DNA of 64,000 nucleotides from a virus. Below the pieces are notes generated by a model. The model was given only the letters and a program-made list of their open reading frames with translations. It made no database searches and was not told the origin of the DNA. Of this stretch, positions 1 to 64,000 are shown piece by piece. The number at the start of each line of letters is the position of its first letter. The stretch's first letter is position 1. Position numbers and translations under genes: made by a program. The DNA lies in IMG/VR virus record IMGVR_UViG_3300026484_000105, positions 1 to 64,000 of that record, one strand, 5' to 3'.

Positions 1-94
1 GGTCTTGTTGGATTCTTATTAGTAGATGCATTAGCTGCTGATGAAAACAAGATTGACTTCTGTACTGAAAATGATACTGTTGAAGGAGTTTGTT

Positions 95-403
95 GTGGAA
101 AATAAAGCTCTTAATAATACTAAAATTGATGATGTTAAGAAAACAACATCTGATGTAGAAGTTTTTGGTGACGGTGATTTATTTAAGTTGTTGTCTAAAG
201 CATCTTCTAGAAGTCAGGGTTGGATGAAGTCTACTAAAGCTATGTTCACTGGAACAGGGTGTGCGATACAAGTTACTACACAAGTACAAAATCCAGACCT
301 TACGCATAGTGTTGCAGAAGCGATTACATTTGTTCCTAATGTTAAAATTGTGGAGGATATGAAAAATGGCATTTGCATAGGTCGACATTTGGAAGCTCTA
401 TAA
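95..403 (+). CDS. small conserved phage protein, possible Acb4-like cyclic-nucleotide sponge
   Basis: GTG at 95 after AAGGAG (track start 41 is less likely). Motif LLSKASS-x3-GWMKSTKAM-x5-CAIQVTTQ...AEAITFVP. The Acb4 link is from recall only. Confidence 0.5.
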   Translation: MENKALNNTKIDDVKKTTSDVEVFGDGDLFKLLSKASSRSQGWMKSTKAMFTGTGCAIQVTTQVQNPDLTHSVAEAITFVPNVKIVEDMKNGICIGRHLEAL

Positions 404-419
404 AAGAAAAAAAATAATG

Positions 420-450
420 AGTACTAGTATCGCTATGCGATACTAGTACT
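420..450. terminator. palindromic hairpin between convergent genes
   Basis: AGTACTAGTATCGC-TAT-GCGATACTAGTACT; an A-run on the left gives a U-tract on the minus strand. Confidence 0.8.
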
Positions 451-1154
451 TAAACTCTTTTTAATTCACTGCGGGTGAACGTATGTGGAGTCCAGCAATT
501 ATACATTACTTTATCATCAGTTGTCTCAGGTTCCAACTTAGTACCTAGAATATATTCCACCTTACCAGTAAAATCAATATTCTTTCCAACAATAAAGTAT
601 ATTTCCCCACTTAACTCAGATATATCGCCTCTGCCATGATTTGGGTCTAGATTATCTATGTCCACAGATACAGCATCACCAAAGTTTAGTTCATTATCTT
701 CTTTCTTTAATTCACTTGTAATAAAACCATATGCTACATAGTCATTAAAACTAATTATATCATCGTCAGTTTTTGGCTCTCTAGTTTTTGATAAAGTATA
801 TTGCAATGGTTTATCGTACGAATTAATTATTTGTACGATATATAAAGTTTTACCAATATACTGTTCAAATAATTTTAAATCAGGATTATCCAGAACGTCT
901 TCTTTACTTATCAATACTGCGTCACCCATGTTAAAAGATTTATCTTCTTTTAAAAGGTCTTTAAACTCTTGACTAAGTGCTATTGCATGGTCAGATTTAA
1001 AGTGTACGTCAAATGTAATCTCGTCATCTACATGACCAGTGTATTCAATTAAGCTAACCTGCCCATCTTCTCTAACCAACTTAATAATCTTATTTCCATT
1101 TTCATCTTTGAAAACACCAACACATTCATACCCATTTACTTTTTCTTTACTCAT
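450..1154 (-). CDS. hypothetical protein with two tandem ~80-aa repeats
   Basis: FNMGDAV...EPKTDDD...TSELK and LNFGDAV...EPETTDD...RSELK. Confidence 0.75.
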   Translation of the reverse strand: MSKEKVNGYECVGVFKDENGNKIIKLVREDGQVSLIEYTGHVDDEITFDVHFKSDHAIALSQEFKDLLKEDKSFNMGDAVLISKEDVLDNPDLKLFEQYIGKTLYIVQIINSYDKPLQYTLSKTREPKTDDDIISFNDYVAYGFITSELKKEDNELNFGDAVSVDIDNLDPNHGRGDISELSGEIYFIVGKNIDFTGKVEYILGTKLEPETTDDKVMYNCWTPHTFTRSELKRV

Positions 1155-1521
1155 CTATAACCTCCTTCATTATGTGGTTCACTCTATGTACGTACGCTTC
1201 TAACTCTTTATTACCAGCCCATGGCGAACATCCATCATTGAATAAGTAGCCATGTTTATTAAAGAATAAGTCATCGCGTAGACTATTTGGGTTTATCTGC
1301 AAAACAGTATCAGCTACTTCACTGCGTTCAAATGATTCCTTTGTAGAGCCCAAAGGTAAGTATTCTCGATTAACTAAAGTTATACTTTTACCATCAGCAT
1401 TTATAGTTAATTGATACGGTAGATTGTGACGCATTACATCATACCTAGCATCTTTATTTCCATTCTTTACAGTAATAAAATCTAGATCCCTAATTATCTT
1501 ATTTTTCATCATCTTCTCCAT
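1147..1521 (-). CDS. conserved hypothetical phage protein
   Basis: ORF coupled to the next gene; motif LPY...NREYLPLG...LFNDGCSPW. Confidence 0.7.
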   Translation of the reverse strand: MEKMMKNKIIRDLDFITVKNGNKDARYDVMRHNLPYQLTINADGKSITLVNREYLPLGSTKESFERSEVADTVLQINPNSLRDDLFFNKHGYLFNDGCSPWAGNKELEAYVHRVNHIMKEVIDE

Positions 1522-1532
1522 TTTCTAATCTT

Positions 1533-1751
1533 TTAAAATTTTAGCTTCATGATGGCATCACCAGTTAAGTTAAGTTCTATTACAGTATAATCAGAGCCAA
1601 GTTCTTTGGCTCTTTTGTCAGCATCTGATTCAGTCGCAAATAAGATGTTATCATGAACATTTGCATACATTTCCTGTGGTATCGCTAGTTTACTGTAAGA
1701 TCCGCCCTGCTCTGGTACCCTTACATCCATAACTACAAGATAGACTAACAT
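1533..1751 (-). CDS. hypothetical protein
   Basis: Tightly packed in the minus-strand operon. Confidence 0.6.
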   Translation of the reverse strand: MLVYLVVMDVRVPEQGGSYSKLAIPQEMYANVHDNILFATESDADKRAKELGSDYTVIELNLTGDAIMKLKF

Positions 1752-5613: not shown

Positions 5614-7728
5614 ATGAGTAATATATTTATAAAAGATCTAGAAAATTACAATATCGATATGAAGCCTGTTGCTAAGTACGTCGAACAAGCAACAATATAT
5701 ATTCATAAAGCTACTGGTAAGCCAATTGAAGAATGTAAAAGATTGGTTGCAACGCAACTTAAGAAAAAGGATATAAAAAATCCAATAGTTAAATATAACT
5801 ATAGAAATGATAATGGTGACGTAACAGTTGAGAGTACAACATTAACAAATTATATAGAAGATAATGTAGCTAGCAATCATATTGTTGTTCCATCTATGAC
5901 CGCTTATGTACACCCAACGGTAGATAAATCTCTACATGCTACGTTCCTAGAGAAGAATATTGCCTCTAGAAATAAGGATAAGAAAACAGCCTTTAAATAT
6001 AAACAAGAGGGCAATGCTGTATTGCATGGCCGATACAATACCCTACAGAAAAGTAAAAAGATAGCCAACAATTCCTTATCAGGAGCCTATGCATCAATAT
6101 CAACAATACTTTATAATCCAAGCGCGCACTATTCGTTAACAAGTACAACTAGAACAGCAACTAGTATAGCTAATGCTATAACCGAATCAATGGTTGCAGG
6201 TAATAAACATTTTAGAGAACCAGAAATAGCTTTAAATTATATGTTGTCTACTATAGCTACTGTTGATTATAAGACAGTATCAGATATTATAGATAAGTAT
6301 GGCATACATAAACCTACGACAGGAGAAGTATATGCGTCTATTAGAAGAAGTACTGATTTATACTGGACTAACAAAGAGTATAATAAAAGATATATTGAAC
6401 TACTGGATAAGCTTGATGGAGTTGAAAGAGCTATAATTTTATATACAAATGATTTTTATCATCTTAGAGTTTTTAACGATAAACTAATAAGAGAGTTTAT
6501 TAGTAAACTTTCTAAGAAAGTGACAGGTTATGCTACTGATCCTCTAAAGGTACTTAATGAATCAGAAGAGTTTGTTCTTAACCTAATACATCACATTTGT
6601 GCACCTGACATTAAAGGTAAAAAAGTAAACTATAAAGATATGGTCGGTAGCCATGAATTGGATGCGCTTGGATCAACAGCTCTAAATGTTAACGTGACAT
6701 TAGAAGCGTATGCTGATTTACTTCAGGCATTTTTTAGAAATGATGTTATGCCAGTCAGCGTTGCTTATATCCGAGACATGTTAAGAAGGGTTACAGTTCT
6801 TTCAGATACAGATTCTACTTGTGCTACATATCAAGAATGGGTTGAATGGTATTATGGTGAAATCTTGTTTAGTGATGGTGCTACCGCAGTTAGCGCATCA
6901 GTTATGTCAGTTGTTACGCAGGTACTGGAGCATAAATTAAGACAATACACTAGTAATCTAAACGTCCCTGATGATTTAAAAGATAAAATTACATATAAAG
7001 GTGAATTTTATTGGCATAGCATGACTCCAATGTCAGTTGCCAAACATTATTTTGCAAGCGTTGCAATACAAGAGGGTAACGTGTTCGCTGAAGATGATTT
7101 AGAGCTAAAGGGTGTTAATTTAATTGCTTCAAATGCACCAATGTTTGTGCAAAAAATAACAAAAGAAACAATCATTAATATTAATGAGACTATAACTAGA
7201 AATGAAAAACTTTCTATTAACAAGTATATTAAGATAGCAGCAGATCTTGAAAGACGAATCTTAAAAGAACTTAAATCTGGTAACATTGAAGTTTTAAAGA
7301 TGGGTAAGATAAAAGAAGCTAATGGTTATAAACTTGGTCCAGATAAGTCACCATATATTAATCATATATTTTGGGAAGAGGTTATGTCAATAAAATATGG
7401 GGTAATTGATAAACCACCATATAGTACAGTTAAACTACCGACTACACTTAAATCAAAAAGACTTATGAATGAGTATATTGAAAGTATTGAAGACGAGTCT
7501 TTAAAAGAAAGATTTAAAACCTATTGTGAGAAGTATAATAAGGATACTATAGGTACATTTAATTTACCATTAATTATTGTTGGAGAGCATGGTATTCCAG
7601 AAGACCTACTACCAGTTATTGATAGTGATAGAATAGTGTTTGATTCATTAGGTGCTTTATATATGTGCCTTGAGGGAATTGGATTTTTTAAAAAAGAAGG
7701 CATGAAGATTATAGATATGGGTTATTAG
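5614..7728 (+). CDS. split family-B DNA polymerase, polymerase-domain subunit (phiKZ gp050-like)
   Basis: Motif B QKSKKIANNSLSG, motif C LSDTDS, KHYFA and LELKG; no N-terminal exonuclease motifs. Confidence 0.85.
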   Translation: MSNIFIKDLENYNIDMKPVAKYVEQATIYIHKATGKPIEECKRLVATQLKKKDIKNPIVKYNYRNDNGDVTVESTTLTNYIEDNVASNHIVVPSMTAYVHPTVDKSLHATFLEKNIASRNKDKKTAFKYKQEGNAVLHGRYNTLQKSKKIANNSLSGAYASISTILYNPSAHYSLTSTTRTATSIANAITESMVAGNKHFREPEIALNYMLSTIATVDYKTVSDIIDKYGIHKPTTGEVYASIRRSTDLYWTNKEYNKRYIELLDKLDGVERAIILYTNDFYHLRVFNDKLIREFISKLSKKVTGYATDPLKVLNESEEFVLNLIHHICAPDIKGKKVNYKDMVGSHELDALGSTALNVNVTLEAYADLLQAFFRNDVMPVSVAYIRDMLRRVTVLSDTDSTCATYQEWVEWYYGEILFSDGATAVSASVMSVVTQVLEHKLRQYTSNLNVPDDLKDKITYKGEFYWHSMTPMSVAKHYFASVAIQEGNVFAEDDLELKGVNLIASNAPMFVQKITKETIININETITRNEKLSINKYIKIAADLERRILKELKSGNIEVLKMGKIKEANGYKLGPDKSPYINHIFWEEVMSIKYGVIDKPPYSTVKLPTTLKSKRLMNEYIESIEDESLKERFKTYCEKYNKDTIGTFNLPLIIVGEHGIPEDLLPVIDSDRIVFDSLGALYMCLEGIGFFKKEGMKIIDMGY

Positions 7729-11579: not shown

Positions 11580-13496
11580 TTATCTTATAACATCTAAATA
11601 GGAAATTGTTTCTATATTTAACTCCTTAGCCTTATTAAGTTTATTGCCTGCTTTATTCCCATATACTACTAAATCAGTGGTCTTACTAACGCTAGATTTT
11701 ATATTGCCACCTTGCTTCTCTATAATGTCCTTAACGGCATCTTTACCAACATGCATTGACCCAGTTAAAACGACGTCCATTTTACTATACTTACCTTTTA
11801 TAGAACCACTATCTTTGGGTTTAACTAATGAGAAAAGATCCATAACATAACTTTTATTTTTCTCCATATAATTAATAAAGTTACTTGCTATCTCATCTCC
11901 TACACCATTTATTTTAATTAGGTCATCATAATTTAATCTAAAGATATCATATGAGTAAACATCACATACCTTTTTACTAACAGTTCTCCCGAAACTACTA
12001 ATACCAAGCGCTGCCACAAACTTATATAATTCTATACTTTTACTATCTTCTATAGATTTTAGTAAGTTATTTATTTTCTTATCCTGAAACCCATCTAACA
12101 ATTCAAGTTTTTCTTTGGATAATGTATAAAGATCCCTTACATCTCTAACTAAGTTAGTCTTAACTAGAGCAGTCGCTACAGATTCACCGAGTCCCTCTAT
12201 ATTCATGTAGTCTCTACCAGCAAAGAACATAAGAAATCTTATAATTCTAGATGGACAGTTTTCATTAACACATCTTATGTCAATGTCTCCAGTCTCTAGT
12301 TTTGTTTTACATTCAGGACATACAGTTGGTTTTTCAACCTTTATTTCCAAACCAGTTCTTCTATCCTTAAATACCTTTATAATTTTGGGTATAATATCAC
12401 CAGATTTTATCAGAACCACTTGATCGTTTATTCTAATGTCTTTCTTCTCTATCTCAGAGTAGTTATGTAGAGTAACGCGTTCAACAGTACTACCATCAAT
12501 GAGTGTAGGAGACAGTATTGCCACTGGTGTTATTACTCCAGTTCTACCAACCTGATCTATTATATTAAGTACTTTTGTGGTTTTCTCTACAGCTGGAAAT
12601 TTATAGGCACAACTCCATTTAGGATATTTGTTAGTATATCCATAAACATCATGTAATTTGGCGTCATCTATCTTTATCATTAACCCGTCTATTAGCATAG
12701 ATAAACTAGGTCTATGCTCTTGTACCCACTTGTATGTATCTCTAATAGCATCTATGTTATCATGTATAAAATTAAAGGGACTATGTTTAAAACCCAGGTC
12801 CTTTAATAGATCGGCTTTATATGTTTCAGACCGACTATATCCCACTATATCTTTAGAATAGATATCCCAAGGATGAAATACTAAGTTGGCCTTTTTAATA
12901 ACACTTTGATCTAAACTGCGCAATATTCCAGCTGCAGCATTTCTAGGGTTCGCATATAGTTTTTCATTATTAATCTCTTTAGCCAAATTTAATGCATCAA
13001 AATCTTTTTTATACAGAGTTACTTCTCCAGATACCTCTATGTAGTGCGTAATGCCTATACTCAATGGTATCGTATTTATCAAAATAGCATTCCCATATAC
13101 AGACTCCCCAATTCTACCATCACCCCTAGTGATTGCATCTGTAAGCACGCCTTCGTTATATATTAGTTTTAAACTAAGCCCATCATATTTAGGTTCTAAT
13201 TTAAAACTAAGTCCTTTCTTATTAGATAGCCATTTTACTAATTCATCATCTGTGAATATATCTTCTTGGCTCCACATCCTATGTTCATGTTTTACCTTAT
13301 TAAACTTTTCAGAAACTCCACCAATCCTCCTAGTTGGACTATTTGGATGAACTTTATCAGAATGCTCTTTTTCATAGTCTAAAACCTTATGATATAAAGT
13401 ATCATATTCCTCATCAGTGGCTAGTGGATTGTCCAAAACATAATACGCATGTGCCCATTTTATTAACTTTTCTACTTCTCTTTTGTAATTAAACAT
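11580..13496 (-). CDS. ligA: NAD-dependent DNA ligase
   Basis: EPKYDG adenylation motif, TRGDG, ANPRNAAAG, QVGRTGVITPVA, Zn finger CPEC...C...C, HhH repeats, C-terminal BRCT. Confidence 0.97.
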   Translation of the reverse strand: MFNYKREVEKLIKWAHAYYVLDNPLATDEEYDTLYHKVLDYEKEHSDKVHPNSPTRRIGGVSEKFNKVKHEHRMWSQEDIFTDDELVKWLSNKKGLSFKLEPKYDGLSLKLIYNEGVLTDAITRGDGRIGESVYGNAILINTIPLSIGITHYIEVSGEVTLYKKDFDALNLAKEINNEKLYANPRNAAAGILRSLDQSVIKKANLVFHPWDIYSKDIVGYSRSETYKADLLKDLGFKHSPFNFIHDNIDAIRDTYKWVQEHRPSLSMLIDGLMIKIDDAKLHDVYGYTNKYPKWSCAYKFPAVEKTTKVLNIIDQVGRTGVITPVAILSPTLIDGSTVERVTLHNYSEIEKKDIRINDQVVLIKSGDIIPKIIKVFKDRRTGLEIKVEKPTVCPECKTKLETGDIDIRCVNENCPSRIIRFLMFFAGRDYMNIEGLGESVATALVKTNLVRDVRDLYTLSKEKLELLDGFQDKKINNLLKSIEDSKSIELYKFVAALGISSFGRTVSKKVCDVYSYDIFRLNYDDLIKINGVGDEIASNFINYMEKNKSYVMDLFSLVKPKDSGSIKGKYSKMDVVLTGSMHVGKDAVKDIIEKQGGNIKSSVSKTTDLVVYGNKAGNKLNKAKELNIETISYLDVIR

Positions 13497-13563: not shown

Positions 13564-14607
13564 TTAAAATACTAAACCATTTTCATCAGGCTTATAGTCA
13601 GTGCTAATATCATCAACTGTAGCTCTTTCAGCAGCAGCTCTTATAGTTTCTATCTCTTCTTTTAACTCATGTTCTATTATAGAGAATGAGTTGGCATAAC
13701 TAACGATATGTATTGGAAATTGCCCCTTAAACATTGATATAACATTGTTGTTATCTGTAGTACCAGCTTTATAGTGTGTCAGTCCAGTAAGATTTATATC
13801 GCATGAAATATCAGGTGTAGTTATCGTTCTTGCACCAATAGGTGTAATATGGTCAGGTAGGTTAACGTCCTTAACGAAAACACCCGTACCATATAGACCA
13901 GGTTTAACATCAAAGTCAATTTCTGTTGGATCGAAAAAACGAACCATGTCTTTTTGATCAATAGATGTGTTTTCACCAGATAAGAATAATGACAATGCAG
14001 ATAAGTTTTTGAATATCTCTTTATCAGTAAAATTAGATCTCTCATCAGTTGTATTACCTACAGACTTCATATTGTCATTATAGATAATACTTAAAGGTTT
14101 TTTACACCCTTTAGAAATACTATTGTAAGTAGCTAATGTATCTAATGTATTTTTAGTCCATTGACCATTACTAGAATCACCAACAAGAACAACAGCTGTA
14201 GGTAGACCTCTATCTAAAAGATTCTTAACTAATAGAGGAGCAGCAACAGAACCAGTACCACCAGATGCAGAAGATATAACGATATAATAAGTTGATAATG
14301 TTGGTTTAGTCAGTTGTTTTTTATCAACGAATTCTTTAATACTCTCTACAATATCTGCAGCATTTTCTCTTCTTAAACCACCACTACCAAGAATATCCTT
14401 TGTTAGACAATTTGATCTTATTAAATGGAAGTTGTCTTCATCATGATCAACGTCTTTAATGTTAGATAAAGAACTATCTATATATTCAGCGCTTATCTTT
14501 GAGAAACCATCACCAAGCTCTTTTAACGGCCCCTGTAAATTATTAACGATACTTACACCTGCTCCACCACATCCAACTAATACCATTTCACCTTGAGTTT
14601 TTAACAT
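13564..14607 (-). CDS. phuZ: phage tubulin PhuZ
   Basis: GCGGAG, GSGG and SASGGTGS tubulin signature; acidic tail DENGLVF; start MLKTQG at 14607 with AAGGA SD. Confidence 0.9.
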   Translation of the reverse strand: MLKTQGEMVLVGCGGAGVSIVNNLQGPLKELGDGFSKISAEYIDSSLSNIKDVDHDEDNFHLIRSNCLTKDILGSGGLRRENAADIVESIKEFVDKKQLTKPTLSTYYIVISSASGGTGSVAAPLLVKNLLDRGLPTAVVLVGDSSNGQWTKNTLDTLATYNSISKGCKKPLSIIYNDNMKSVGNTTDERSNFTDKEIFKNLSALSLFLSGENTSIDQKDMVRFFDPTEIDFDVKPGLYGTGVFVKDVNLPDHITPIGARTITTPDISCDINLTGLTHYKAGTTDNNNVISMFKGQFPIHIVSYANSFSIIEHELKEEIETIRAAAERATVDDISTDYKPDENGLVF

Positions 14608-14618
14608 TATATTTCCTT

Positions 14619-15149
14619 TTATTTTCTTATTTCTGTTATTAGCTCTACAGCTAATTCCCACATCTCTTCTTCATGCCTCGTATCAGATAACAATTTATTA
14701 TCAATTATAGTTTCACAATAATCTAAGTATTGATGCTTCAAACATGACTTAAGTCTTCTATCTAAATTACCGTTTATACTAACCTTTTCATTAAATACAA
14801 GAAACATCATGTAGAAGGTCAGTAAGTCAGTATTTATATTTCCAGACTCACCTATATTGAAATTGATTCCCAAGATACTTTTTATCTCATTAAAATCATC
14901 AGTATTTACAAACTGACAAAAGTTATCAGCTAAACTAGTAATAACCTCTCTGCCAGCTTTAACAATCTCATACTCCTCTGTCACATTTGTATTTGTATAC
15001 AGCGTAAGATTTTCATTGTTACCAGCATTTGTTAAAGCAGCAGCTAAATATAAGACCTTTGCATCTTTAATAGATTCAATGTCTATTGGCTTACAGAATT
15101 CGTTACACTTAGATGTCTCAGCTGTTGACATCGTCTTTCTGTGCTCCAT
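14619..15149 (-). CDS. hypothetical protein co-transcribed with phuZ
   Basis: ATG at 15149 with AAGGAG SD (track start 15221 lies in the promoter hairpin). Confidence 0.7.
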   Translation of the reverse strand: MEHRKTMSTAETSKCNEFCKPIDIESIKDAKVLYLAAALTNAGNNENLTLYTNTNVTEEYEIVKAGREVITSLADNFCQFVNTDDFNEIKSILGINFNIGESGNINTDLLTFYMMFLVFNEKVSINGNLDRRLKSCLKHQYLDYCETIIDNKLLSDTRHEEEMWELAVELITEIRK

Positions 15150-15213: not shown

Positions 15214-15261
15214 AGATACACTGCATCTACATTAATAATATATTGTTGTTTATTTTTTAAA
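15214..15261 (-). promoter_or_regulatory. putative early promoter plus 5' hairpin, copy 2 (drives the phuZ operon)
   Basis: Minus strand TTTAAA-N13-TATATTAT-N5-TAGATGC-AGT-GTATCT. Confidence 0.6.
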
Positions 15262-16993
15262 GCTTATTTATATGTTCTATTTCAAGTCGTAACTCAATGT
15301 TACCTTTAAAAGTATTTAAGACAGGCCTATATACTATCCGTATTTTCATGTCCCTCTCTAATAGATCTTCATCAAATTTATTATCAAAGTTAAATATGAA
15401 ACTATCATATATAATGCCATGATTATCAAGTAATTTTAAATTAACATGTTCCGAATCTCTTCCAATATAAATAACTTTATGCAATGTAAAATCCCCTACA
15501 AAGAAAATCTTATTAAACTTCATACCAAACGGACTAAGTGTTTTAATTTCATTTATGATGGATTCATTAAGTTTATCGTTTTCAATCTTACCTATTACAT
15601 AGTGTACTTTTTTCGTTTCTTTTCCAGTTAACTGTTCTTTAGCCTCACTACCAAGTAGCTTCTTAAAATCATTTATTTTGTCAGCATGAACTTCACAGCC
15701 AGCAGCGCCTTTGTGTCCACCAAACTTAATTAATACATCAGGGGCTTTTTCCTTTATATTACTAAGTGCTGCGTGTAGGTCAAAATTTGGATTAATCGCC
15801 CTACCAGAACCATGGTAGCTATCGCCATCTTTAATAAACGTTACCACTGGTTTATTATACTTCTCACCAACACTACTAGAGACTATTCCATTTAAACCAA
15901 GTCCCTGAGTTAGAGTAATTACTAAGGCATCTTCATTTTCTGCATTTATACATTGCAATAATGCATTTCTAGTCAAATGTTTTTGTAACTTCTTTCTATC
16001 AGCATTTATCTCAAGAAGTTTTTCAAAGCTTATAACCGCATCTCTATATTCTTCTGCAATATAAAATTTAAATGCCGCATCAGGCTGACCCATTCTACTG
16101 GCTGCATTTAATGCTGGAACAATATTGAACCCAAGAGTCTCTTCATCCATTAAAACATTTACATCTAATAGATATTTAACAGCTTGCCATAATGGATCCT
16201 TTAAACTGTTTAGTTCTTTAAGTCCACTTATAGTTAATGCCCTGTTTATTGGATTGGATAAATCCATAGCATCGCCTATTGTAGATATTGCCACTATAGG
16301 TAACATATTATAAATATCAGCTACATCCGTATAACCATATTTCTCAGCTAATGAGTATGCAGTAAAGAATGCTACAGCACAACCAGATATAGATTTAAAA
16401 GTTTCATTTTTATCCTTTTGTGGATTCACGAATGCATCAGCTACCCTAGCAGATCCATCATCAGGTACTAAGTGATGATCAGTAACAACAACCTTAATGT
16501 TATGTTCTTGTAACATTTCTATGCTAGAACCGTTAGCGGATCCATGGTCAGCAGTTATCACTAAATTTATAGGATTTCTTTTATGCTCAGTAAGTATAGT
16601 GTTTAATAATTTAACTCCTATACCATTTCCATTCTCTCTCTTATTTATAATAACTTCTAGGTTATCAAGATTATACTTAAAAATATTTTTAAAGAATCTA
16701 TATAAAACTGCAGCTGAAGATATCCCATCACAATCATAATCAACTACAATAGCAATCCTCTCATTGTTCTTCATCGCATGTTCTATTAGATCCACAGCAT
16801 TGTCAACCTCAGATACTAAATTAAGAAAGTCTGGAATATCTCTTAATCTAGGATTAAATACAAATTCTATATCGCTAACAGACGTTAGTTTACTAGCAAT
16901 GATAGATGATTGTAAATCAGTATATCCTAATTCTATACTTTTGTTATATACCTCCTTATTAAGAGGTAGTTGTTTAATTGTTTCATTATACAT
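15257..16993 (-). CDS. recJ: ssDNA 5'-3' exonuclease RecJ
   Basis: DYDCDG, TADHG, TDHH, PALNAASRMG, GSGRA, GGHKGAAG. Confidence 0.95.
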   Translation of the reverse strand: MYNETIKQLPLNKEVYNKSIELGYTDLQSSIIASKLTSVSDIEFVFNPRLRDIPDFLNLVSEVDNAVDLIEHAMKNNERIAIVVDYDCDGISSAAVLYRFFKNIFKYNLDNLEVIINKRENGNGIGVKLLNTILTEHKRNPINLVITADHGSANGSSIEMLQEHNIKVVVTDHHLVPDDGSARVADAFVNPQKDKNETFKSISGCAVAFFTAYSLAEKYGYTDVADIYNMLPIVAISTIGDAMDLSNPINRALTISGLKELNSLKDPLWQAVKYLLDVNVLMDEETLGFNIVPALNAASRMGQPDAAFKFYIAEEYRDAVISFEKLLEINADRKKLQKHLTRNALLQCINAENEDALVITLTQGLGLNGIVSSSVGEKYNKPVVTFIKDGDSYHGSGRAINPNFDLHAALSNIKEKAPDVLIKFGGHKGAAGCEVHADKINDFKKLLGSEAKEQLTGKETKKVHYVIGKIENDKLNESIINEIKTLSPFGMKFNKIFFVGDFTLHKVIYIGRDSEHVNLKLLDNHGIIYDSFIFNFDNKFDEDLLERDMKIRIVYRPVLNTFKGNIELRLEIEHINKL

Positions 16994-17823: not shown

Positions 17824-17976
17824 ATGCTTACAGTTACTAGAACCGATAAAAGAGATAAAAAAGTTGTTGTTAGTGATTATACTAAACAAGATACTACTAA
17901 ACAAACTGGTACAAAAAATAGTAAACCAGGCGCATATGGTCAAATGGCTACAGATATATTAAAAGAGAAAAAGTAA
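17824..17976 (+). CDS. small basic protein (50 aa), absent from the ORF track
   Basis: AAGGG SD; MLTVTRTDKRDKK...KEKK; TAATG overlap with the next gene. Confidence 0.55.
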   Translation: MLTVTRTDKRDKKVVVSDYTKQDTTKQTGTKNSKPGAYGQMATDILKEKK

Positions 17977-19286
17977 TGAATAGAGAACTTACTATAGAGG
18001 AAGAGAACGGTGGAGTATGGGATTCAGAACTTAATCAATATTTCTTTAGCAAAGAATCTCAACATGTAGATCAGAAGGGTATAAAAAGAGTTTTTGAAAA
18101 ATACTTCAGACATGTTAAATTTGATAATAAGTTTTTCTTAAAGATAGCACGTTTTAGAATATCATGGGCTACTAAAAATACGGACACTATAGAGTTCTTA
18201 GGGGGAAATCTTTTAGGAGTTAATCCAATAAGATTCTCGGCATTAGATGAGGAAACATTCTTTATGGATGTACTAGGTGTAGATAAAGATGAGCTTAAAA
18301 TAGAATTACACGCCATAGATGGTATCGACCCAAATAGAATAGTCACGTCCAATGTATTCTATTTAACATGCAGTTATCTGTTTCATGGATTTACTATGTC
18401 TAAAGATATTGGTAAGAGTATGGAAAGTGCTCTTAGAGAGACATATTATATATTTGCATATAGAGCTATGAGTAGTCTTGTTTCACATTATTTTAAATAT
18501 GAGGTAGAGAGACCAATAGCCATAGCAGTATATGAGCAACTTTCTAATAAATTCCTTATAAAAAAATTAGGCACTTGGCAGAAAGTATTTGAATATAGGG
18601 CAGAGGCAGTAATACCCCCAAAAGGATTGCATGCTAAACGTATAAGAACATACGAAACAGATGATGCAATGCGGATAGTAATGGACTTACAAGGTCGCAT
18701 TAGAGAAACAGTTAAAAACATTTATCCTATATTAATGGAAGTAAGAAATAATAATGAAAAAATAAAGAATACATCTTTAGACAAGATTGATATTGAAGGA
18801 GACTCAGCAATAGCAGATATAGTGGATAGACCTGATTTATATGCTATTTATATAAAAGGTATAATTTACAAGTATAATGACTTTGTAAAGAGTGATCTTA
18901 TTCACGTAGTAACAGATATGCTCAACATGACGAGTACTAAAGATATAACAGAAACGCTTATGTATATCTCTGAGATATCCATGAGTGATATAAAGCGTGT
19001 AGAGATGATAGTAGATAGTTCAATAAATGTAGCCATAGAATATCTTAGTAGAAAGAATATTCAATCCAGTTATCAAACAGATGTTATGCAAATCTTATTC
19101 TTATTAAAAAATTACTATACTGGAAGTAGGGTAAATAATAAGGATATGGATAAGATAAAGAATGCTTTAAGGGATATTTATAAAGAAGCGACTGGTAAAA
19201 AAAATAAAACCGCAGTATCTAATGTTAGGGTTGGTATAATGTTATATATTGTATTGCGAGCATTAGCTAAAAATAGTTACAATTAG
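17976..19286 (+). CDS. conserved phiKZ-like virion protein (gp032-like)
   Basis: EFLGGNLLGVNPIRF and LSNKFLIKKLGTW motifs; synteny near the terminase. Confidence 0.65.
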   Translation: MNRELTIEEENGGVWDSELNQYFFSKESQHVDQKGIKRVFEKYFRHVKFDNKFFLKIARFRISWATKNTDTIEFLGGNLLGVNPIRFSALDEETFFMDVLGVDKDELKIELHAIDGIDPNRIVTSNVFYLTCSYLFHGFTMSKDIGKSMESALRETYYIFAYRAMSSLVSHYFKYEVERPIAIAVYEQLSNKFLIKKLGTWQKVFEYRAEAVIPPKGLHAKRIRTYETDDAMRIVMDLQGRIRETVKNIYPILMEVRNNNEKIKNTSLDKIDIEGDSAIADIVDRPDLYAIYIKGIIYKYNDFVKSDLIHVVTDMLNMTSTKDITETLMYISEISMSDIKRVEMIVDSSINVAIEYLSRKNIQSSYQTDVMQILFLLKNYYTGSRVNNKDMDKIKNALRDIYKEATGKKNKTAVSNVRVGIMLYIVLRALAKNSYN

Positions 19287-23069: not shown

Positions 23070-23120
23070 ACTATCTCCTATTTTTTTCTTTTCATTGAAT
23101 ACTATTAAAAAGGAATTACT

Positions 23121-47900: not shown

Positions 47901-48567
47901 ATATCTCAACTATGATAGTTTGTATCTTAAATCTTATTGGATCTAATACCATAGGATCGTTATGTAGAGTAGAGATGTTTTCTAATGCATTTGTTGTGGT
48001 TAGTAGCCTCCTATAAACAGCATTTATTTCATCTTCACTTGGCTTACCATTATCATCAACAATATAATCCCTTAGTCCAGCAGGTATGACTAAAAAGTGA
48101 TCTATGAGTATTTCACCCTTACTATATTTTTTAATAAGCTTTATTTTAAATTCCCTGGCATCACTACCATTACTATTTAATTTAATTTTATCATACTTTT
48201 TCATAAAGAATTCGAAACCAGTATCTCCTTCTTCTGCATTAGAGGAAATGAAATCTCCACCTTTTTCATCCCATTTTGCATAAGTCTTACCAGATAGTAT
48301 ATCTAAATATAACTTTTTTAAACTTGAGATATGTTTAAAGACAAGTGGGTGTAGAACCTTTATATGTAATTTTATATAACCGAATTTATTATTCCGTTCT
48401 TCACTTCCGACCCGACCGAAAGTCTCAGTAGAGAATAAACCATTAGTACTGAAGTTTTTAGTAGATGGTTCAAATATACTTAGGTCACTTACTTCCCTCA
48501 TTACACCTATCTGTTTTCTATTTAATAATAGTAAATCTATATTAAAAGGTGGTAAATTTGACAGCAT
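44952..48567 (-). CDS. virion RNA polymerase beta' catalytic subunit (phiKZ gp180-like), spliced: exon 1 48567-47118, exon 2 45118-44952, 538 aa
   Basis: GLFSTETFG, VIPAGLRD, TRNVIT, TRYPV; GAT T + TT GAT GGT GAT restores LGADFDGD. Confidence 0.93.
45119..47117 (-). mobile_element. group I intron (1999 nt) carrying a homing endonuclease
   Basis: U at the 5' splice site, terminal G. P1 GAUU/GAUU pairs with AAUUGAUC (45618-45625); P2 CAUGUU-GAGA-AGCAUG; P AAUUGCUGGAAA; Q UUAGCAGCUAAG; R GUUCAACGACUAU (45292-45304); S AUGAUAUAGUC (45190-45200). Confidence 0.93.
45591..47039 (-). CDS. intron-encoded homing endonuclease: 5 Zn-binding repeats (DUF723-like) plus Vsr/EDxHD-type nuclease domain
   Basis: Five F/W-I/L..A/S...H...Y.Y...C..HG.F......H....C..C repeats; C-terminal ESKGE, YDFYLP, IEFDGIQHF, SDAEKN, LIRIP. 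Confidence 0.85.
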   Translation of the reverse strand: MKTTKTEAFIKKAKEVHNNKYRYDKTEYILSDVPLIITCPIHGDFKQRPFSHIRNKQGCRECAKDKLRMTKETFLLKAHEAHGNRYNYTLVEFIDARTAVTIQCKEHGPFKQKPTKHIKGQGCPKCAYITPINKILSKAKKFIDKANKVHNGKYLYIPESYSVKDGSIKIICPIHGEFTQNRFHHISGSGCKQCGIVSRVEQDTLTTEEFIERSRKVHGDLYDYSKTKYINSKNKVTIRCRVHGDFEQIPWNHYNGAKCVKCTNNYNYTTKEWIEKAINLHGSRYDYSMVNYTNKKTKVTLICKKHGEFRITPDDHIHKQAGCPLCSESKGEQRIRIFLELNKIDYIKNYRLNENRYMYDFYLPELNILIEFDGIQHFKPVKFFGGEKAFKIQKKSDAEKNHLAKMNKIPLIRIPFTKLKNIEEYLTYMLCKEKMYVVNNKYYRNILDLCKGEKLPMDTSPKDVVKFKLKNKLILHVEKHVE

Positions 48568-58543: not shown

Positions 58544-58954
58544 ATGGCAGAACAAAATAACGGTATGTTTAATAGTGCTGATTTAGCAGTATTTAAGAAA
58601 ACCAATGATTTAAGATTAAAACTAATAGACAGCATGACTGAAGACGATGTACCTACTAGAAGTGGAGACATCCGTGTTCTTAACGAAACATTAGATGCTG
58701 CAGATAGACAAGTTATGGAGCTTGCTAAGATTAAAGTTAAACAGCAAGAGAATGAAGGCAATGCTAGAACACTTAACATGGTCGCAGAGATTCTGGGTAG
58801 AGTTAGTGCAAGTGGCGATATTAAACCTATATCTAATAAAGAGATAGAGTTGCCAGATGACTATATACCAGTCGATATAGTTCCAGGTGAAACAGATACG
58901 TCTCCAGAAGAACTAGATTTAAGTACATTTATAAAGGAAGATGATGAACAGTAG
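58544..58954 (+). CDS. hypothetical protein
   Basis: SD and upstream AATGA motif; acidic C-terminus. Confidence 0.65.
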   Translation: MAEQNNGMFNSADLAVFKKTNDLRLKLIDSMTEDDVPTRSGDIRVLNETLDAADRQVMELAKIKVKQQENEGNARTLNMVAEILGRVSASGDIKPISNKEIELPDDYIPVDIVPGETDTSPEELDLSTFIKEDDEQ

Positions 58955-59771
58955 TATAAGAACTATATATGGGGTAGATTTGTCGTTAGCTAACCTTAAG
59001 GGTACAGTTTATAAACCTTTACCAAATACAACATTAAATGAAAAATTTAATATAGAAGTTAGGATACCAAATGAGAAAACGGGTAATCCTACATTAAAAG
59101 GTTTTTGTATAGGTAATGGTAATACGCCTACATTGGGTAAAAATGAAGATGGTATTTTATTCTATGGAAGATATAATGCGAATGATGGGGCTCTTCACTC
59201 ACATATTCCTTTTATAGTAAGGGAGTTAAGGTACGACTTAAGTTCTATTGATAAGAGTAAATATAGATTAAGAAAAGAGATAGTTAAAGATGGCGTTAAG
59301 TATGTGGCTTATTATATGAAAGTTATAGAACCAGTAGATAGAAAGAGTCAGATACTTGAAATAGCCGTAGCAAATGATGGTACATATGGCATTAGTAACT
59401 ACAACACTAACGATGCTTCTATCCTAAATCCAACCGAAATCGAAACAGAGCAAATAAGTAAGTCGGTAACGAATAAATATATAGTTATATCTGACCAGAT
59501 AGGTTTAACTCTAAATAAAGACGAATTGGATGAAATTAGAAAGGGTATGAAAACATTAGGTCTCGATACATTAAGTAACAAAATAAATGAGTTAGCTGTA
59601 TGTACTGGACTTGATGGTATTGATGTAGTCAATCATATGGAAGAATCATTCTGTACCCAAATATTTATATTTGCTGATTTGCCGTATGAAGTTGATTTAG
59701 AGCTTATAGAAGATAAGGGTTTCTATAGGGAGATAGAGATTGGTGGGATGGAACCTATATCTATAAGATGA
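58941..59771 (+). CDS. conserved phiKZ-like virion protein
   Basis: PNTTLNEKFNI, CIGNG, HIPFIVRE, YRLRK, AYYMK, INELAVCTG, GGMEP. Confidence 0.65.
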   Translation: MMNSSIRTIYGVDLSLANLKGTVYKPLPNTTLNEKFNIEVRIPNEKTGNPTLKGFCIGNGNTPTLGKNEDGILFYGRYNANDGALHSHIPFIVRELRYDLSSIDKSKYRLRKEIVKDGVKYVAYYMKVIEPVDRKSQILEIAVANDGTYGISNYNTNDASILNPTEIETEQISKSVTNKYIVISDQIGLTLNKDELDEIRKGMKTLGLDTLSNKINELAVCTGLDGIDVVNHMEESFCTQIFIFADLPYEVDLELIEDKGFYREIEIGGMEPISIR

Positions 59772-59840
59772 TGTTGGGGTCTATCACCTAACATTATTAA
59801 TATAGTCTATTTAATGAATAACTTAAAAAGAGAGTACAAG

Positions 59841-60434
59841 ATGTTAAGAAACATTAAAGAAATAGTACCAGATAATTTTGTGGATACAGTAAATATATTA
59901 GCCATAGATCCAGGTACTACAACTGTAGGCGTGTCAGTATTTACTATAAATGTAATAACGTTTGAGCTTTTAAATGTGGAGACTATCTTAATTGATACAA
60001 GTATAAGGTTTGAACCAAGGGATTTAACAAAAGATCTTTTAATAAGATTAAATACTTTGTATAATAGAATGAAAGAACTAATAGCCTATTATGATCCACA
60101 TTTAGTAAGTGTAGAAAATGGTTTCATAAATAGACTTAGACCAGCTGCATACGGTCCATTATCACAGTCTATTATGGCTATAGAGTTAGCCGCTATGGAC
60201 GTCAATCCGTTTATAAAGATATTTAAATTTGCACCTAAAACTATAAAGAAAGTCACTACTGCTGGCGGTGCTGCTGGTAAGGTAGATATGTTGGTTGGTG
60301 TTAAAAATATAAATGAGATAACGAGATATATAAATCCAGATTTAATTAGTGAGCATGAGGTAGATAGTATAGCTGTTAATTATACTATGTTACAGTATTT
60401 AAGAGAGAATCCTATAATACTTTTAATTCTATAA
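59841..60434 (+). CDS. ruvC: RuvC-like Holliday junction resolvase
   Basis: ILAIDPG, VSVE, PKTIKK, SEHEVDSIAV; probable start MLRNIK at 59841. Confidence 0.85.
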   Translation: MLRNIKEIVPDNFVDTVNILAIDPGTTTVGVSVFTINVITFELLNVETILIDTSIRFEPRDLTKDLLIRLNTLYNRMKELIAYYDPHLVSVENGFINRLRPAAYGPLSQSIMAIELAAMDVNPFIKIFKFAPKTIKKVTTAGGAAGKVDMLVGVKNINEITRYINPDLISEHEVDSIAVNYTMLQYLRENPIILLIL

Positions 60435-60446: not shown

Positions 60447-60941
60447 ATGATAAATTTAGCAATGTTAAAAAATAACAAATGGATAATGATTGGGTTAGTG
60501 CTAATACTTATGATATTAATTTATTTGATTATAGGTAAAGTGGATAACTTATTACATCCAAATTTAGATAAACAAATGGCAAGACAACATGTGGCTGATA
60601 AGGTTATTATAAACGAAGTTGTTAAGAAAAATAAAGAGTTACACGAAATAGTTGTAAAGGATAAAAAAGCTAGCGAGTTAACGATAGGAGTTACTAATAA
60701 GTATACTGATGAAAAGGTAAAAAAGGATAGTAAGGTTGATAAGAAAACATCTGATTTAAATATGAAACAAAAAATATTAGAAAACAAATCAAATGTTAGG
60801 GATTTGCCGTTAGGTAATGATAAGCGTACGTTGGCACAGAAGATACTGGATGACAATGATTACCAAAGAAGATTGGAAATTGAGTCTGCCAAAGTAAATA
60901 TAAGCGCCATATACGCAGTATATGCTATTGTAAAAGAGTAA
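60447..60941 (+). CDS. i-spanin (Rz-like)
   Basis: Single N-terminal TM helix followed by charged coiled coil; abuts the lipoprotein gene. Confidence 0.65.
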   Translation: MINLAMLKNNKWIMIGLVLILMILIYLIIGKVDNLLHPNLDKQMARQHVADKVIINEVVKKNKELHEIVVKDKKASELTIGVTNKYTDEKVKKDSKVDKKTSDLNMKQKILENKSNVRDLPLGNDKRTLAQKILDDNDYQRRLEIESAKVNISAIYAVYAIVKE

Positions 60942-61280
60942 ATGATGTTAAAATATATTATGATTGGTATAATGACTATTTTCTTAACTGGTTGTCTTGG
61001 TACTCCTGAACCAGTAATACAAACTAAGATAGTCTATGTAGATAAAAAGATATTGGTTAGTCCTCCAAAACATTTGTTGGAGTCGGTAGATATTCCAAAA
61101 CCGCCAAATAAGGAAGTATTTATACATACAGATAATGTTACAAGATTGAACATGATTAGTAAATATACGATAAGTTTATTGAAAGCACTTGGTGATAGTA
61201 ATGCCAAAATAAAAGCCATACATGATTGGAGTTCAAGTATGGATAAAGTTTATAACGACAAGGAAGATTATCATAAGTAA
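60942..61280 (+). CDS. o-spanin (Rz1-like lipoprotein)
   Basis: Signal peptide with lipobox LTGC; Pro-rich PEP..SPPK..IPKPP; C-terminal helix. Confidence 0.75.
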   Translation: MMLKYIMIGIMTIFLTGCLGTPEPVIQTKIVYVDKKILVSPPKHLLESVDIPKPPNKEVFIHTDNVTRLNMISKYTISLLKALGDSNAKIKAIHDWSSSMDKVYNDKEDYHK

Positions 61281-61300: not shown

Positions 61301-61306
61301 TGTCTT

Positions 61307-62068
61307 TTAACATGGATCAGGTGGACTGGTTTTACTTCCGATTGACTCTGGGTGTACGTGAGTATGTCCTATGTCCCTATCATTATGCTTAATGCAAGAA
61401 CCGAATATATGGAATTGCGGTACATTGAATGTAGCCTTTGGAGCATTAAGTACAACCTCTTTCTTAAAGTTGGCAGTTAAAGTATCCTTAGCACTGTCAA
61501 ATACAATACTGTTACCTCTACCATCTTCCATCTTTATATTGCCTGCTTTGGTATCAATACTTATATCATATGTGGTTAACTCACCATCATTATCAGATGT
61601 ATGTAACTGTACTTTTTTATTAATTGTATCTATTAAAGTCCAGTACGTGTTATTATCATGTAGGTCTTCCTTAAATACACCAGTATTACTATAGTAATTC
61701 TTAACCTTCTCTTGTCTTCTCAGATCGAATTCATTATACATAGTTGTCCAGAAGAATTCATCCGTATCTGTATATCTATATATTTGGACCTGCTCACCTT
61801 TCTTTACATTAGGAGCATATACTCTATTACTATAAAGTAATGGTATCCATTTTGCTTTTATACTTACACCTTTCCTAAGTATAATAACTTCAGTCTCTTC
61901 ATCAACATTAACGCATGTATTTGGCAATATATCTTTATAATTTATATCACCATCTATATGGGTCATATTCTCTAATGGGAAACATTCTATAATATCATCA
62001 TCTTCTATGATATCTTTAGCTACTATAGCCACTGAGTATCTAGTAAATTTACTAGGTCCATCATACAT
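61307..62068 (-). CDS. baseplate central spike protein (phiKZ gp164-like)
   Basis: AKWIP...RVYAPNVKKGEQV.IYRY; beta-helix-like repeats; C-terminal HTHVH metal-binding apex motif. Confidence 0.75.
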   Translation of the reverse strand: MYDGPSKFTRYSVAIVAKDIIEDDDIIECFPLENMTHIDGDINYKDILPNTCVNVDEETEVIILRKGVSIKAKWIPLLYSNRVYAPNVKKGEQVQIYRYTDTDEFFWTTMYNEFDLRRQEKVKNYYSNTGVFKEDLHDNNTYWTLIDTINKKVQLHTSDNDGELTTYDISIDTKAGNIKMEDGRGNSIVFDSAKDTLTANFKKEVVLNAPKATFNVPQFHIFGSCIKHNDRDIGHTHVHPESIGSKTSPPDPC

Positions 62069-62127
62069 CAAATCTCCTTACTTTTAAAATTATCATTAAA
62101 ATGTTATGGGTAAAAAAGAAAAAAAGG

Positions 62128-62154
62128 GACTAAGTAGCAAATGGCTACTTAGTC
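62128..62154 (-). terminator. intrinsic terminator
   Basis: GACTAAGTAGC-AAATG-GCTACTTAGTC followed by a long U-tract on the minus strand. Confidence 0.8.
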
Positions 62155-62493
62155 TAAGCTTATTTTCAACCCTTCACATTCCTTGTTCCATACCCTTACG
62201 AATTCATTTATGAATCCCTCAGTTGTATTAAACAACTTCATTATCTCTTCTGCATCAGCTGGCTCAACTTGTGCGATTCTATACTCTGTAATTGTAAGGA
62301 CCTCACGATTATCATCTATCTCTGTATCACACATAATGATTAAACGATCGCCTTCACTACACACTTCATCTTCTATCCAGAAATCAGGTATAGAGTAATC
62401 CCCAGTTATTTCGCCGTTATCAATTTTTCTGTTGTACGACGCGCTCTTTATAATCAGGTCTCTGATCCTTGTTAGTGATAAAATAGTTTTCAT
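62149..62493 (-). CDS. hypothetical early protein
   Basis: ATG at 62493 with AAGGAG SD; own promoter and terminator. Confidence 0.7.
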   Translation of the reverse strand: MKTILSLTRIRDLIIKSASYNRKIDNGEITGDYSIPDFWIEDEVCSEGDRLIIMCDTEIDDNREVLTITEYRIAQVEPADAEEIMKLFNTTEGFINEFVRVWNKECEGLKISLD

Positions 62494-62546
62494 AATTACT
62501 CCTTGTGTTAGAGGTACCTCTTGGATACTTAACAAAATTATGTCTT

Positions 62547-62597
62547 GATACTACCATGTATCTATCAATATAATATATAATTGAATTATATTGGAAA
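62547..62597 (-). promoter_or_regulatory. putative early promoter plus 5' hairpin, copy 5
   Basis: Minus strand TTTCCA-N14-TATATTAT-N5-TAGATAC-ATGGTA-GTATC. Confidence 0.72.
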
Positions 62598-62655
62598 CCT
62601 ATTTTTTAGTTTTTTAAAGGTAAACAATAAAATGAATATTAATTAAGGATCTACA

Positions 62656-64000
62656 ATGTATATAAAGAAATTAGTTTTAAAAGGATATAAACGACTATTT
62701 TTAGCTTTTATAAACAAACTTGAATTCACACCAGAGAAAAGAATAAATATCATTGTTGGTAAAAATGGTAGTGGTAAATCTAGTACACTTAAAGAACTGA
62801 CTCCCATACCAGCTAATATAAATAAAGATTATGAGGATGGTGGTTATAAAGAAATAGTTCTAGAACATAATAATAAAACGTATCATTTAACATCAGGTTT
62901 AATTGGTAAAAACAAACATAGTTTTTTAGTAGATAATGAAGAACTCAATCCAGCAGGAACAAGAAAGGTGCAACTGATACTGGTTAAGGAACACTTTAAT
63001 GTTACTCCTGACATACACGATGTACTTATAGGTCTTAAAAACTTTACAGATATGTCTGTTAAAGAACGTAAAGATTGGCTAACTAATATATCTACAGTAG
63101 ATTATACATACGCAATCTCTGTATTTAACAAATTGAAACAAAGAAACAGAGATATAATAGGAGCATTAAAAATATCCCAGTCGGAATTATCCAAAACTTC
63201 AGATGGTATAAAAAGCGACGAGGAGCTAAAAAAGATAGAAGACGAGCTATCTATCCTAAAAGAATTATTAATGGTTTCTACGGCATCTAAAACGTCTTTA
63301 ACAGGTGATATAGAAATTGATGAAGAAACAATAAGACAAATATGTAAAGATGCTAATAAAATCATTAGTAAGATAGTTAAACCAAAAGGATTATCCAAGG
63401 ATATTAATATAGAAACGTTAATAGCTATAGATAAAACAGAAATAGAAACTATTGAAAAGAATATAGAGAAAACTAATAAAGTACTCAAAGAGCTATCTTT
63501 TATAGAGGATAACAAAGAGAAATCCTCAGCCAATATAATAAGCGATAAGCTCTCTTTGATAGAAAGAGAGATAAAGGTATTGGAGGAAAGTATGATTGTA
63601 CCAATCCCCCTTAAAGAGATAACTGACACTCATAATTATTTTAGTTATATCTATCAGGATTTAGTATCTTTAATTACTGTCGTAGTAGATAATACATTTG
63701 ATGAATATAATAAGACTAACCATGATACTGATGTTGCCAAGAAGATAAACTTAGAAAGTAAAGTATCTGATAAAAAATCTTTACTAAATAAGTTAGAGGT
63801 ACAATTAGCGACAATGGTACATAACAGAGATCATAATGAAGTAACCTGTACCAAATGTAATAATATATGGTCAATAGGGTATGATAAAAAAGAACATAAA
63901 TATATCTTAAGAAAGATAGAAGAAGTAAATAGGACCATCACTTCTATGGAAGCTGAGATTAAAAAACTAGAAGATACTTTAAAATTCTTTATAAATAAAA
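62656..64000 (+). CDS. sbcC: SbcC/Rad50-like SMC ATPase (phiKZ gp165-like), truncated by the window end, absent from the ORF track
   Basis: MYIKKLVLKGYKR...IIVGKNGSGKSS Walker A; coiled coil; in-frame zinc hook VTCTKC at 63841. Confidence 0.88.
   Translation, partial: MYIKKLVLKGYKRLFLAFINKLEFTPEKRINIIVGKNGSGKSSTLKELTPIPANINKDYEDGGYKEIVLEHNNKTYHLTSGLIGKNKHSFLVDNEELNPAGTRKVQLILVKEHFNVTPDIHDVLIGLKNFTDMSVKERKDWLTNISTVDYTYAISVFNKLKQRNRDIIGALKISQSELSKTSDGIKSDEELKKIEDELSILKELLMVSTASKTSLTGDIEIDEETIRQICKDANKIISKIVKPKGLSKDINIETLIAIDKTEIETIEKNIEKTNKVLKELSFIEDNKEKSSANIISDKLSLIEREIKVLEESMIVPIPLKEITDTHNYFSYIYQDLVSLITVVVDNTFDEYNKTNHDTDVAKKINLESKVSDKKSLLNKLEVQLATMVHNRDHNEVTCTKCNNIWSIGYDKKEHKYILRKIEEVNRTITSMEAEIKKLEDTLKFFINK

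Follow-up and report, generated by a model that had tools for sequence, protein, structure and literature searches.

Members of the Chimalliviridae such as phiKZ, 201phi2-1, PhiPA3, Goslar and RAY are jumbo phages with virion and non-virion multisubunit RNA polymerases (RNAPs), and a set of 72 core genes is shared by phiKZ, Goslar and RAY; the tubulin PhuZ occurs in about two thirds of the members (PMC10299810). A survey published in 2025 screened IMG/VR v4.1 for the nuclear shell protein chimallin and assembled chimallin-/PhuZ-encoding metagenomic phages, a set of 2,001 genomes, for which Enterobacterales, Alteromonadales, Pseudomonadales, Vibrionales, Bacillales and Neisseria are the hosts named (PMC12625630). 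The stem 'Campylobacter' is absent from the main text of that survey, and a literature search brought up no paper that connects Campylobacterota with chimallin, with PhuZ or with phiKZ-like phages, in line with an earlier reading of the sequence (the original prediction), to which no phage lineage of this kind on these hosts was known. The present analysis concerns the first 64,000 bp (the window) of the viral record IMGVR_UViG_3300026484_000105, whose phiKZ-like gene content is combined with a DNA ligase, LigA, of Campylobacterales type and, beyond the window, a topoisomerase, TopA, of Arcobacteraceae type.

The record is a linear, single contig of 109,992 bp, with the window forming its bases 1-64000, a GC content of 31% and a CheckV completeness of 41%. 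Open reading frame (ORF) calling gave 109 ORFs on the record, 63 of which start in the window. All of them were compared by tblastn with the complete phiKZ genome, and searches with Pfam and PHROGs profiles agree with the outcome. Homologues of phiKZ gp50, gp49, gp32, gp25, gp28, gp29, gp30, gp182, gp175, gp176, gp178 (two ORFs), gp180, gp181, gp139, gp164 and gp165 lie in the window, and those of gp161, gp155, gp152, gp149, gp128, gp129, gp123 (non-virion RNAP), gp120 (major capsid protein) and gp118 (helicase) lie further along the record. In all, 30 or more ORFs in the 110 kb thus have phiKZ counterparts, arranged in the blocks gp25-32, gp175-182, gp118-129 and gp149-165; the count refers to block matches, the 72 core genes not being scored singly. 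The placement in the phiKZ-like group that had been proposed from the sequence is therefore upheld by core genes as well as by gene order. The record is likely to be a fragment of a deep-branching, chimallin-encoding jumbo phage of the Chimalliviridae (sensu Prichard et al. 2023) with a probable host in the Arcobacteraceae.

Comparison with described phages

The lineage shares with the Chimalliviridae the virion and non-virion RNAP genes, a gp50-type family B DNA polymerase (PolB), PhuZ, a gp25-type terminase, the gp29/gp30 tail genes, the gp175-182 block, a gp120-type capsid protein and a gp118 helicase, and its nearest relative carries a chimallin gene beside a gp55-like gene. It differs from the known members in its distance, the best identities being 46% for the terminase large subunit, 37% for PolB and 24% for chimallin, and in its Campylobacterales-type LigA and Arcobacteraceae-type TopA. 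The predicted host also falls outside the Pseudomonadota and Bacillota, to which the hosts of all GenBank phage matches obtained here belong. Burkholderia phage FLC9 (LC667451) is the best cultured match for the terminase and for chimallin and the second best for PolB (35%); it differs in its host phylum, in a genome of 322 kb and in protein identities that are far under genus or subfamily level. Used as a single query against a viral contig collection, the terminase found nothing.

A search with the window's LigA turned up a large contig whose LigA is 69% identical, and this led to the uncultured IMGVR_UViG_3300026484_000087 (G001), of 206,244 bp, GC 29.8% and CheckV completeness 77%. Its positions 93.7-197.5 kb are colinear with the whole 110 kb of the record, with 85 of the 109 ORFs matched at a mean amino acid identity of 62%, and it has the same LigA (69%), PhuZ and RecJ genes together with a chimallin gene. 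Unlike the record, it has no TopA and its gp178-like RNAP gene is unbroken; it probably represents another genus or species. It may be among the 2,001 genomes of PMC12625630, because that survey looked for chimallin in the same database. A second related record (G002; 18 kb) matches the beginning of the window's record at 95-98% DNA identity.

Chimallin in the lineage

The upstream 93 kb of G001 supply homologues of phiKZ gp75, 74, 73, 71, 70, 69, 68, 66, 65, 101-98, 89-87, 84, 82, 80, 77, 55, 54, 52, 42 and 203. The counterpart of gp54, which is chimallin, is a 637-amino-acid ORF that adjoins the gp55-like RNAP gene and matches the chimallin family PF25677 with 45.5 bits (cut-off 27). A search with this protein returned 48 homologues, and PF25677 was found in all of them. 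One homologue (P0122; 640 amino acids, 61% identical to the G001 chimallin) has 179,951 bp as its longest listed contig, and the same 179,951 bp are listed for a LigA identical to that of the window. P0122 is also encoded on the JGI contig Ga0256837_1000039 (110,029 bp), of which 4.9 kb were read; its flanks are syntenic with G001, with a gp55-like gene at 82% and a gp52-like gene at 45% amino acid identity. By the G001 map, Ga0256837_1000039 should end about where the window's record begins; both may belong, as adjoining parts, to a single genome of about 220 kb or more.

A profile built from 27 sequences of the clade matches the solved chimallins 7SQT (E 3e-61), 8FNE and 7SQQ (E 2e-53) over nearly their full length. 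An AlphaFold2 (AF2) model of P0122 (pLDDT 73.7, pTM 0.75, with low-confidence tails at residues 1-66 and 586-640) matches chimallin/PhuN chains only, at E ~1e-20 and TM 0.61-0.80, the next match having an E value of 0.02. On profile and modelled fold, the protein of the P0122 clade is a true chimallin, and the phage of the window very probably encodes one as well. Within the portion of IMG/VR searched, the chimallin sub-clade comprised only G001 and a more distant 222-kb contig (G336; chimallin 39%). Taken together with the identities given above, the sequences place the lineage as a deep branch of the Chimalliviridae.

It could be argued that the phage belongs to a phiKZ-like group with multisubunit RNAPs that has no functional nucleus, its chimallin homologue being too divergent or otherwise used. 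The lineage is known from sequence alone, and tblastn with its chimallin reaches only seven GenBank phage records, the nearest cultured one, FLC9, at 24% identity and 82% coverage. However, the matches to solved chimallins, by profile as well as by fold, are nearly full length and exclusive, the neighbouring gp55-like RNAP gene is conserved, and PhuZ is present; a phage of this kind without a nucleus is accordingly regarded as very unlikely.

LigA and its origin

In a search of 5.8 billion proteins with LigA, the named sequences among the best 120 all belonged to Campylobacterales (Aliarcobacter, Arcobacter, Sulfurovum), with identities of 44-47%, and unnamed metagenome proteins reached 52%. 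Identities against 150 Campylobacterota genomes ranged from 38 to 47%; GenBank phage records gave 38% at most, the LigA of phage Goslar being 34% identical. A scan of genome contigs for LigA was biased by its own search patterns and served only to source named sequences.

The LigA phylogeny, which had been set beforehand as a check on the host, was computed for 74 rows with IQ-TREE (LG+C20 PMSF, SH-aLRT support). A phage clade, formed by the window's record, G001 and six metagenomic proteins, joins all Campylobacterota in one group with 100% support on a long stem, with E. coli, three Bacillota and three phage LigAs outside. Within this group, the phage clade is sister to the Arcobacteraceae (96%), and the Sulfurovaceae are the next to branch (98%); a rerun with 38 rows gave the same topology, with 98% and 96%. 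Under LG+G4, a free quick search left the phage clade immediately outside the cellular sequences, at a support of 38%; a tree in which phage and Arcobacteraceae were kept together was 18.6 log-likelihood units better than that free search (p-AU 0.84), and phage and Campylobacterota again grouped with 100%. LigA thus lies inside the Campylobacterota, as sister to the Arcobacteraceae, with 96-98% in the C20 trees.

The signatures named in the original prediction as typical of Campylobacterota ligases can be retraced, all five quoted motifs being present at residues 14, 26, 73, 207 and 299. The MWSQED and WSCAYKFPAVEKTT stretches are matched exactly in Arcobacteraceae rows. Other Campylobacterota have MWSMED or MWSLDD at the former and differ at the latter, and E. 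coli, Listeria and phage Goslar have M[LM]SL at the MWSQED stretch. As a separate observation, LigAs of Arcobacteraceae or Sulfurovaceae type also occur in metagenome-assembled genomes (MAGs) that NCBI lists as Paceibacteria, Cocleimonas or Helicobacter. The three MAGs checked (Paceibacteria, Cocleimonas, Helicobacter pylori) have genomes of 2.1-2.7 Mb and no other LigA, and the NCBI labels look wrong.

TopA and the time of its gain

Of the host markers in the record, TopA, a bacterial topoisomerase of type IA, is the strongest. It is 58-61% identical along its whole length to the TopA proteins of seven named Arcobacteraceae genomes (Arcobacter caeni, Arcobacter sp. 15-2, Arcobacter sp. LRMN1-1, Pygsuia-1, Halarcobacter, Malaciobacter halophilus and Poseidonibacter lekithochrous), and 43-47% identical, over the first ~620 residues only, to those of Sulfurovum, Nitratifractor, Sulfurospirillum and the other Campylobacterota sampled. 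In an exhaustive HMMER pass through 1.84 billion cluster representatives, no sequence outside the 50% cluster of TopA itself exceeded 52%, and a plasmid collection gave 46% at most. In the tree, the phage TopA and one metagenomic protein (from a 178,570-bp contig) fall inside a clade with 100% support that holds all nine Arcobacteraceae rows, the remaining Campylobacterota TopAs being placed elsewhere. The Arcobacteraceae TopA itself groups not with other Campylobacterota TopA but near Bacteroides TopA and unnamed representatives, and its alignable C-terminal region is longer.

Neither G001 nor G336 has a TopA gene. Because LigA is common to the record and G001 and TopA is not, the two genes appear to have been gained at two different times, both from the Arcobacteraceae branch of the Campylobacterota.

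Host-type genes on a metagenome assembly, one of them absent from G001, might be thought to stem from Arcobacter DNA joined to a phage contig. However, neither gene exceeds 61% amino acid identity to any bacterial gene, and their GC contents of 32-34% are near the 31% of the contig. LigA, moreover, has an unchanged location in G001 and in the G002 fragment of 18 kb, and TopA is flanked by ORFs that match G001. An assembly artefact is consequently considered extremely improbable.

Host assignment

Since LigA and TopA both trace to the Arcobacteraceae branch, the host is most likely an Arcobacter-family bacterium. Of the Arcobacter- or Sulfurimonas-like host envisaged in the original prediction, the Campylobacterota, and within them the Arcobacteraceae, are thus retained by both genes, and Sulfurimonas is not favoured. 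The candidate spanin pair, as described below, fits a host with an outer membrane.

The phage may instead be a chimallivirus whose present host is another diderm, e.g., a gammaproteobacterium or Sulfurovum/Sulfurimonas, with LigA and TopA left over from old transfers or acquired by way of other phages. This would agree with the modest identities of the two proteins to Arcobacteraceae genes (LigA 46-48%, TopA 58-61%), with the third relative, G336, which has neither gene in the 222 kb examined, and with a RecJ that bears no Arcobacteraceae-type signal. Cultured Chimalliviridae, too, infect Gram-negatives (the GenBank matches found here have Pseudomonadota hosts) and one Bacillus (PMC10299810). 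However, two genes gained at different times point to the same bacterial family and no gene signalled any other phylum; the GC content of 31% would not conflict with Arcobacteraceae. A host outside the Arcobacteraceae is therefore rated as unlikely.

For a host in the Arcobacteraceae and a phage nucleus taken together, we propose that the lineage consists of nucleus-forming phages, the first for Campylobacterota, in which host DNA enzymes shut out by the shell were replaced by captured host-lineage copies, first LigA and later TopA, that would now work inside the nucleus. This fuller proposal is favoured, though by little more than even chances. Several points weigh against the main reading, a chimallin-encoding phage with a host in the Arcobacteraceae. 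In the record's 110 kb, no match to PF25677 was found; this means little because the record is only 41% complete. The search for ChmA in the rest of the genome, which the original prediction had attached to its notion of a possibly nucleus-forming lineage, found chimallin in the colinear relative G001 and in the homologue P0122, and not in the record itself. The tie of the P0122 contig to the record rests on an equal listed length and not on read sequence. Nucleus formation is, for every member of the lineage, a prediction by analogy with cultured phages.

On the side of the host, RecJ, which had been put forward as a second phylogenetic marker, proved uninformative: it belongs to a graded series of unnamed metagenome homologues without Campylobacterota signal, and its nearest named cellular homologues are from Patescibacteria (28-31%). 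LigA and TopA are just 46-61% identical to bacterial genes, so the transfers would be old, and old transfers show past association, not the present host. The LigA and TopA trees come from quick searches, contain few outgroups and have SH-aLRT values as their sole support. The host assignment is a prediction drawn from gene phylogeny; a DNA search of 184 Arcobacteraceae genomes, with two candidates scored per genome, recovered ligA similarity only, by a method blind to spacers.

Proposed infection cycle and its significance

The infection cycle is likely to follow that of phiKZ, 201phi2-1 and Goslar (PMC10299810), by analogy with which four steps can be proposed. The DNA would be injected together with the virion RNAP (gp178-/gp180-like subunits), which would start early transcription. 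A chimallin shell would then be built round the phage DNA and positioned by PhuZ filaments. Inside the shell, DNA would be replicated, recombined and repaired by the phage's own enzymes, because those of the host would be kept out. PolB, RecJ, RuvC, RNase H, helicases, LigA and TopA may form a self-sufficient set of DNA enzymes for this purpose, with LigA and TopA presumed to act inside the shell; LigA would have been captured before the split from the 206-kb relative and TopA after it.

If this holds true, an Arcobacteraceae lineage would extend the phage nucleus to a further phylum, whose members matter in sulfidic, marine and wastewater habitats and include emerging pathogens, and concrete bacteria could be named for isolation attempts. 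A capture of host-type LigA and TopA in two steps agrees with the notion that the shell obliges these phages to bring along enzymes of their own for handling DNA. The divergence of the chimallin makes it a useful far point for asking which features of the shell are essential.

Gene content of the window

The features located are collected in Table 1. The tubulin named in the original prediction is confirmed as PhuZ by PHROGs, by Pfam and by solved PhuZ chains. The tail sheath and tube were also correctly recognized, the former by phrog_3242 and PF20961 and the latter by its gp30 match. A 'split PolB' was claimed as well; the gp50-like PolB stands, but no split is visible in the window because the gp50-like gene is the only PolB gene in it. 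In phiKZ, gp82 is the second gene annotated as a DNA polymerase; nothing in the 110 kb matches it, and its homologue was found only in the upstream part of G001. Among GenBank phages, PolB is closest to Bacillus phage AgentSmith (36.5%), followed by FLC9 (34.8%).

Table 1. Annotated genes of the window, with TopA from the remainder of the record (positions are those of the record)
Feature	Position	Strand	Evidence
Divergent family B DNA polymerase (gp50-like)	5614..7728	+	PF20286 E 4e-190, whole Pfam model covered; 31% identity to phiKZ gp50
NAD-dependent DNA ligase LigA, Campylobacterales type	11580..13496	-	Pfam adenylation, OB, Zn, HhH, BRCT: all NAD-ligase domains
PhuZ tubulin	13564..14661	-	phrog_4733 'tubulin PhuZ' E 1.9e-48; PF00091 Tubulin 37.4 bits (cut-off 33); solved phiKZ PhuZ 3ZBP E 1e-7
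RecJ-like single-stranded DNA exonuclease, phage lineage gene	15257..16993	-	DHH, DHHA1, RecJ_OB domains
gp32-like head protein	17976..19286	+	phrog_2921 E 1e-101; tblastn E 5e-48
Terminase large subunit (gp25-like)	19960..22101	+	40% identity to phiKZ gp25, E 3e-172; best match Burkholderia phage FLC9 46%
gp28-like virion protein	22122..23192	-	tblastn E 4e-9
Tail sheath (gp29-like)	25998..28133	+	phrog_3242 E 3e-179; PF20961
Tail tube (gp30-like)	28225..29226	+	tblastn to phiKZ gp30 E 3e-39
gp182-like virion protein	30990..33050	-	phrog_3181 E 2e-156; tblastn E 2e-96
Prohead protease (gp175-like)	33130..33900	-	37% identity, E 5e-34
gp176-like head protein	34121..34852	-	E 3e-42
gp177-like protein, weak match at expected position	34864..36186	-	phrog_3841 E 5e-26; BLASTP to gp177 E 7e-5 over C-terminal 180 amino acids
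Virion RNAP subunit gene (gp178-like), two ORFs 38093-41191 and 36470-37537	36470..41191	-	phrog_3148 E 7e-233; both ORFs match gp178
Virion RNAP subunit gene (gp180-like), main ORF 47116-48567	44952..48567	-	phrog_2986 E 4e-164; phrog_559 E 6e-88; tblastn
Giant gp181-like virion protein, 2,491 amino acids	48637..56112	+	tblastn to phiKZ gp181 E 6e-14; 51% identity to G001 counterpart
gp139-like protein	58941..59771	+	E 1e-24
RuvC-type Holliday junction resolvase	59814..60434	+	PF02075 E 7e-12
i-spanin candidate	60447..60941	+	N-terminal transmembrane helix, residues 6-24; position as phiKZ gp141
o-spanin candidate	60942..61280	+	signal sequence with lipobox LTGC at its end, residues 15-18
Baseplate protein (gp164-like)	61307..62071	-	E 4e-14
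gp165-like protein; ORF extends to record 65115	62656..64000	+	E 7e-68
Type IA topoisomerase TopA, 785 amino acids, bacterial	73458..75815 (outside window)	-	PF01131 E 6e-118, Toprim and C-terminal repeats

Genes for subunits of the virion RNAP, as originally read from the sequence, are present as the gp178- and gp180-like genes, and the claimed gp175-181 synteny is recovered in the form of gp182/175/176/177/178/180/181 homologues within 30990-56112, the gp177 match being weak. The virion RNAP is further represented by a gp149-like gene at record 89332-90024 and by a gp80-like gene in G001; the non-virion RNAP is represented by a gp123-like gene at record 99057-100751 and by gp55-, gp71-, gp73- and gp74-like genes in G001. 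The gp178-like gene consists of ORFs of 1032 and 355 amino acids parted by ~555 nt (37538-38092), a gap in which no Rfam family reached the gathering score; its counterpart in G001 is a single ORF of 1,395 amino acids. Rfam had no match at that score anywhere in the window, and tRNA genes were found neither in the window nor in G001.

The gp180-like gene is followed by an inserted ORF for an HNH endonuclease of 482 amino acids (45591-47039) and then by a short downstream piece (44952-45179). Ahead of the HNH ORF, the RNAP ORF terminates in ...LLGAD, and G001 has a shorter gap at this site, without a long ORF. The piece after the HNH ORF, of 75 amino acids, matches an unannotated stretch of phiKZ (186226-186342) between gp178 and gp179. 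Five extra ORFs (41288-44857), a peptidase of the M16 family and four small ones, separate the gp178- from the gp180-like gene. The M16 (insulinase-type) peptidase (41288-42604, + strand) is kept in G001 (75%), and in the Atlas it resembles viral clusters that carry no host signal.

The spanins announced in the original prediction are borne out in form, as an ORF with a transmembrane helix followed by one with a lipobox, and are compatible with the diderm host suggested there; the pair stands directly after the gp139-like and RuvC genes, as in phiKZ.

Three further ORFs can be mentioned. Between the gp28-like and sheath genes, an ORF of 594 amino acids (24116-25900, + strand) has no credible Pfam or PHROG family and a counterpart in G001 with 46% identity. 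A small protein near the end of the record (109404-109880, - strand) contains a single membrane helix and the motif CIQCH, and Pfam gives nothing for it at E 0.001. In the Atlas, it lies closest to clusters of viral hypothetical proteins, which bear no host signal, cytochrome c clusters appearing only at 0.86-0.87. A protein with a metallo-beta-lactamase fold (4187-5227, - strand) matches the profile of Apyc1, an anti-Pycsar nuclease, below threshold (PF23023, 32 bits; cut-off 50) and is 90% identical to its counterpart in G001, far over the 62% average.

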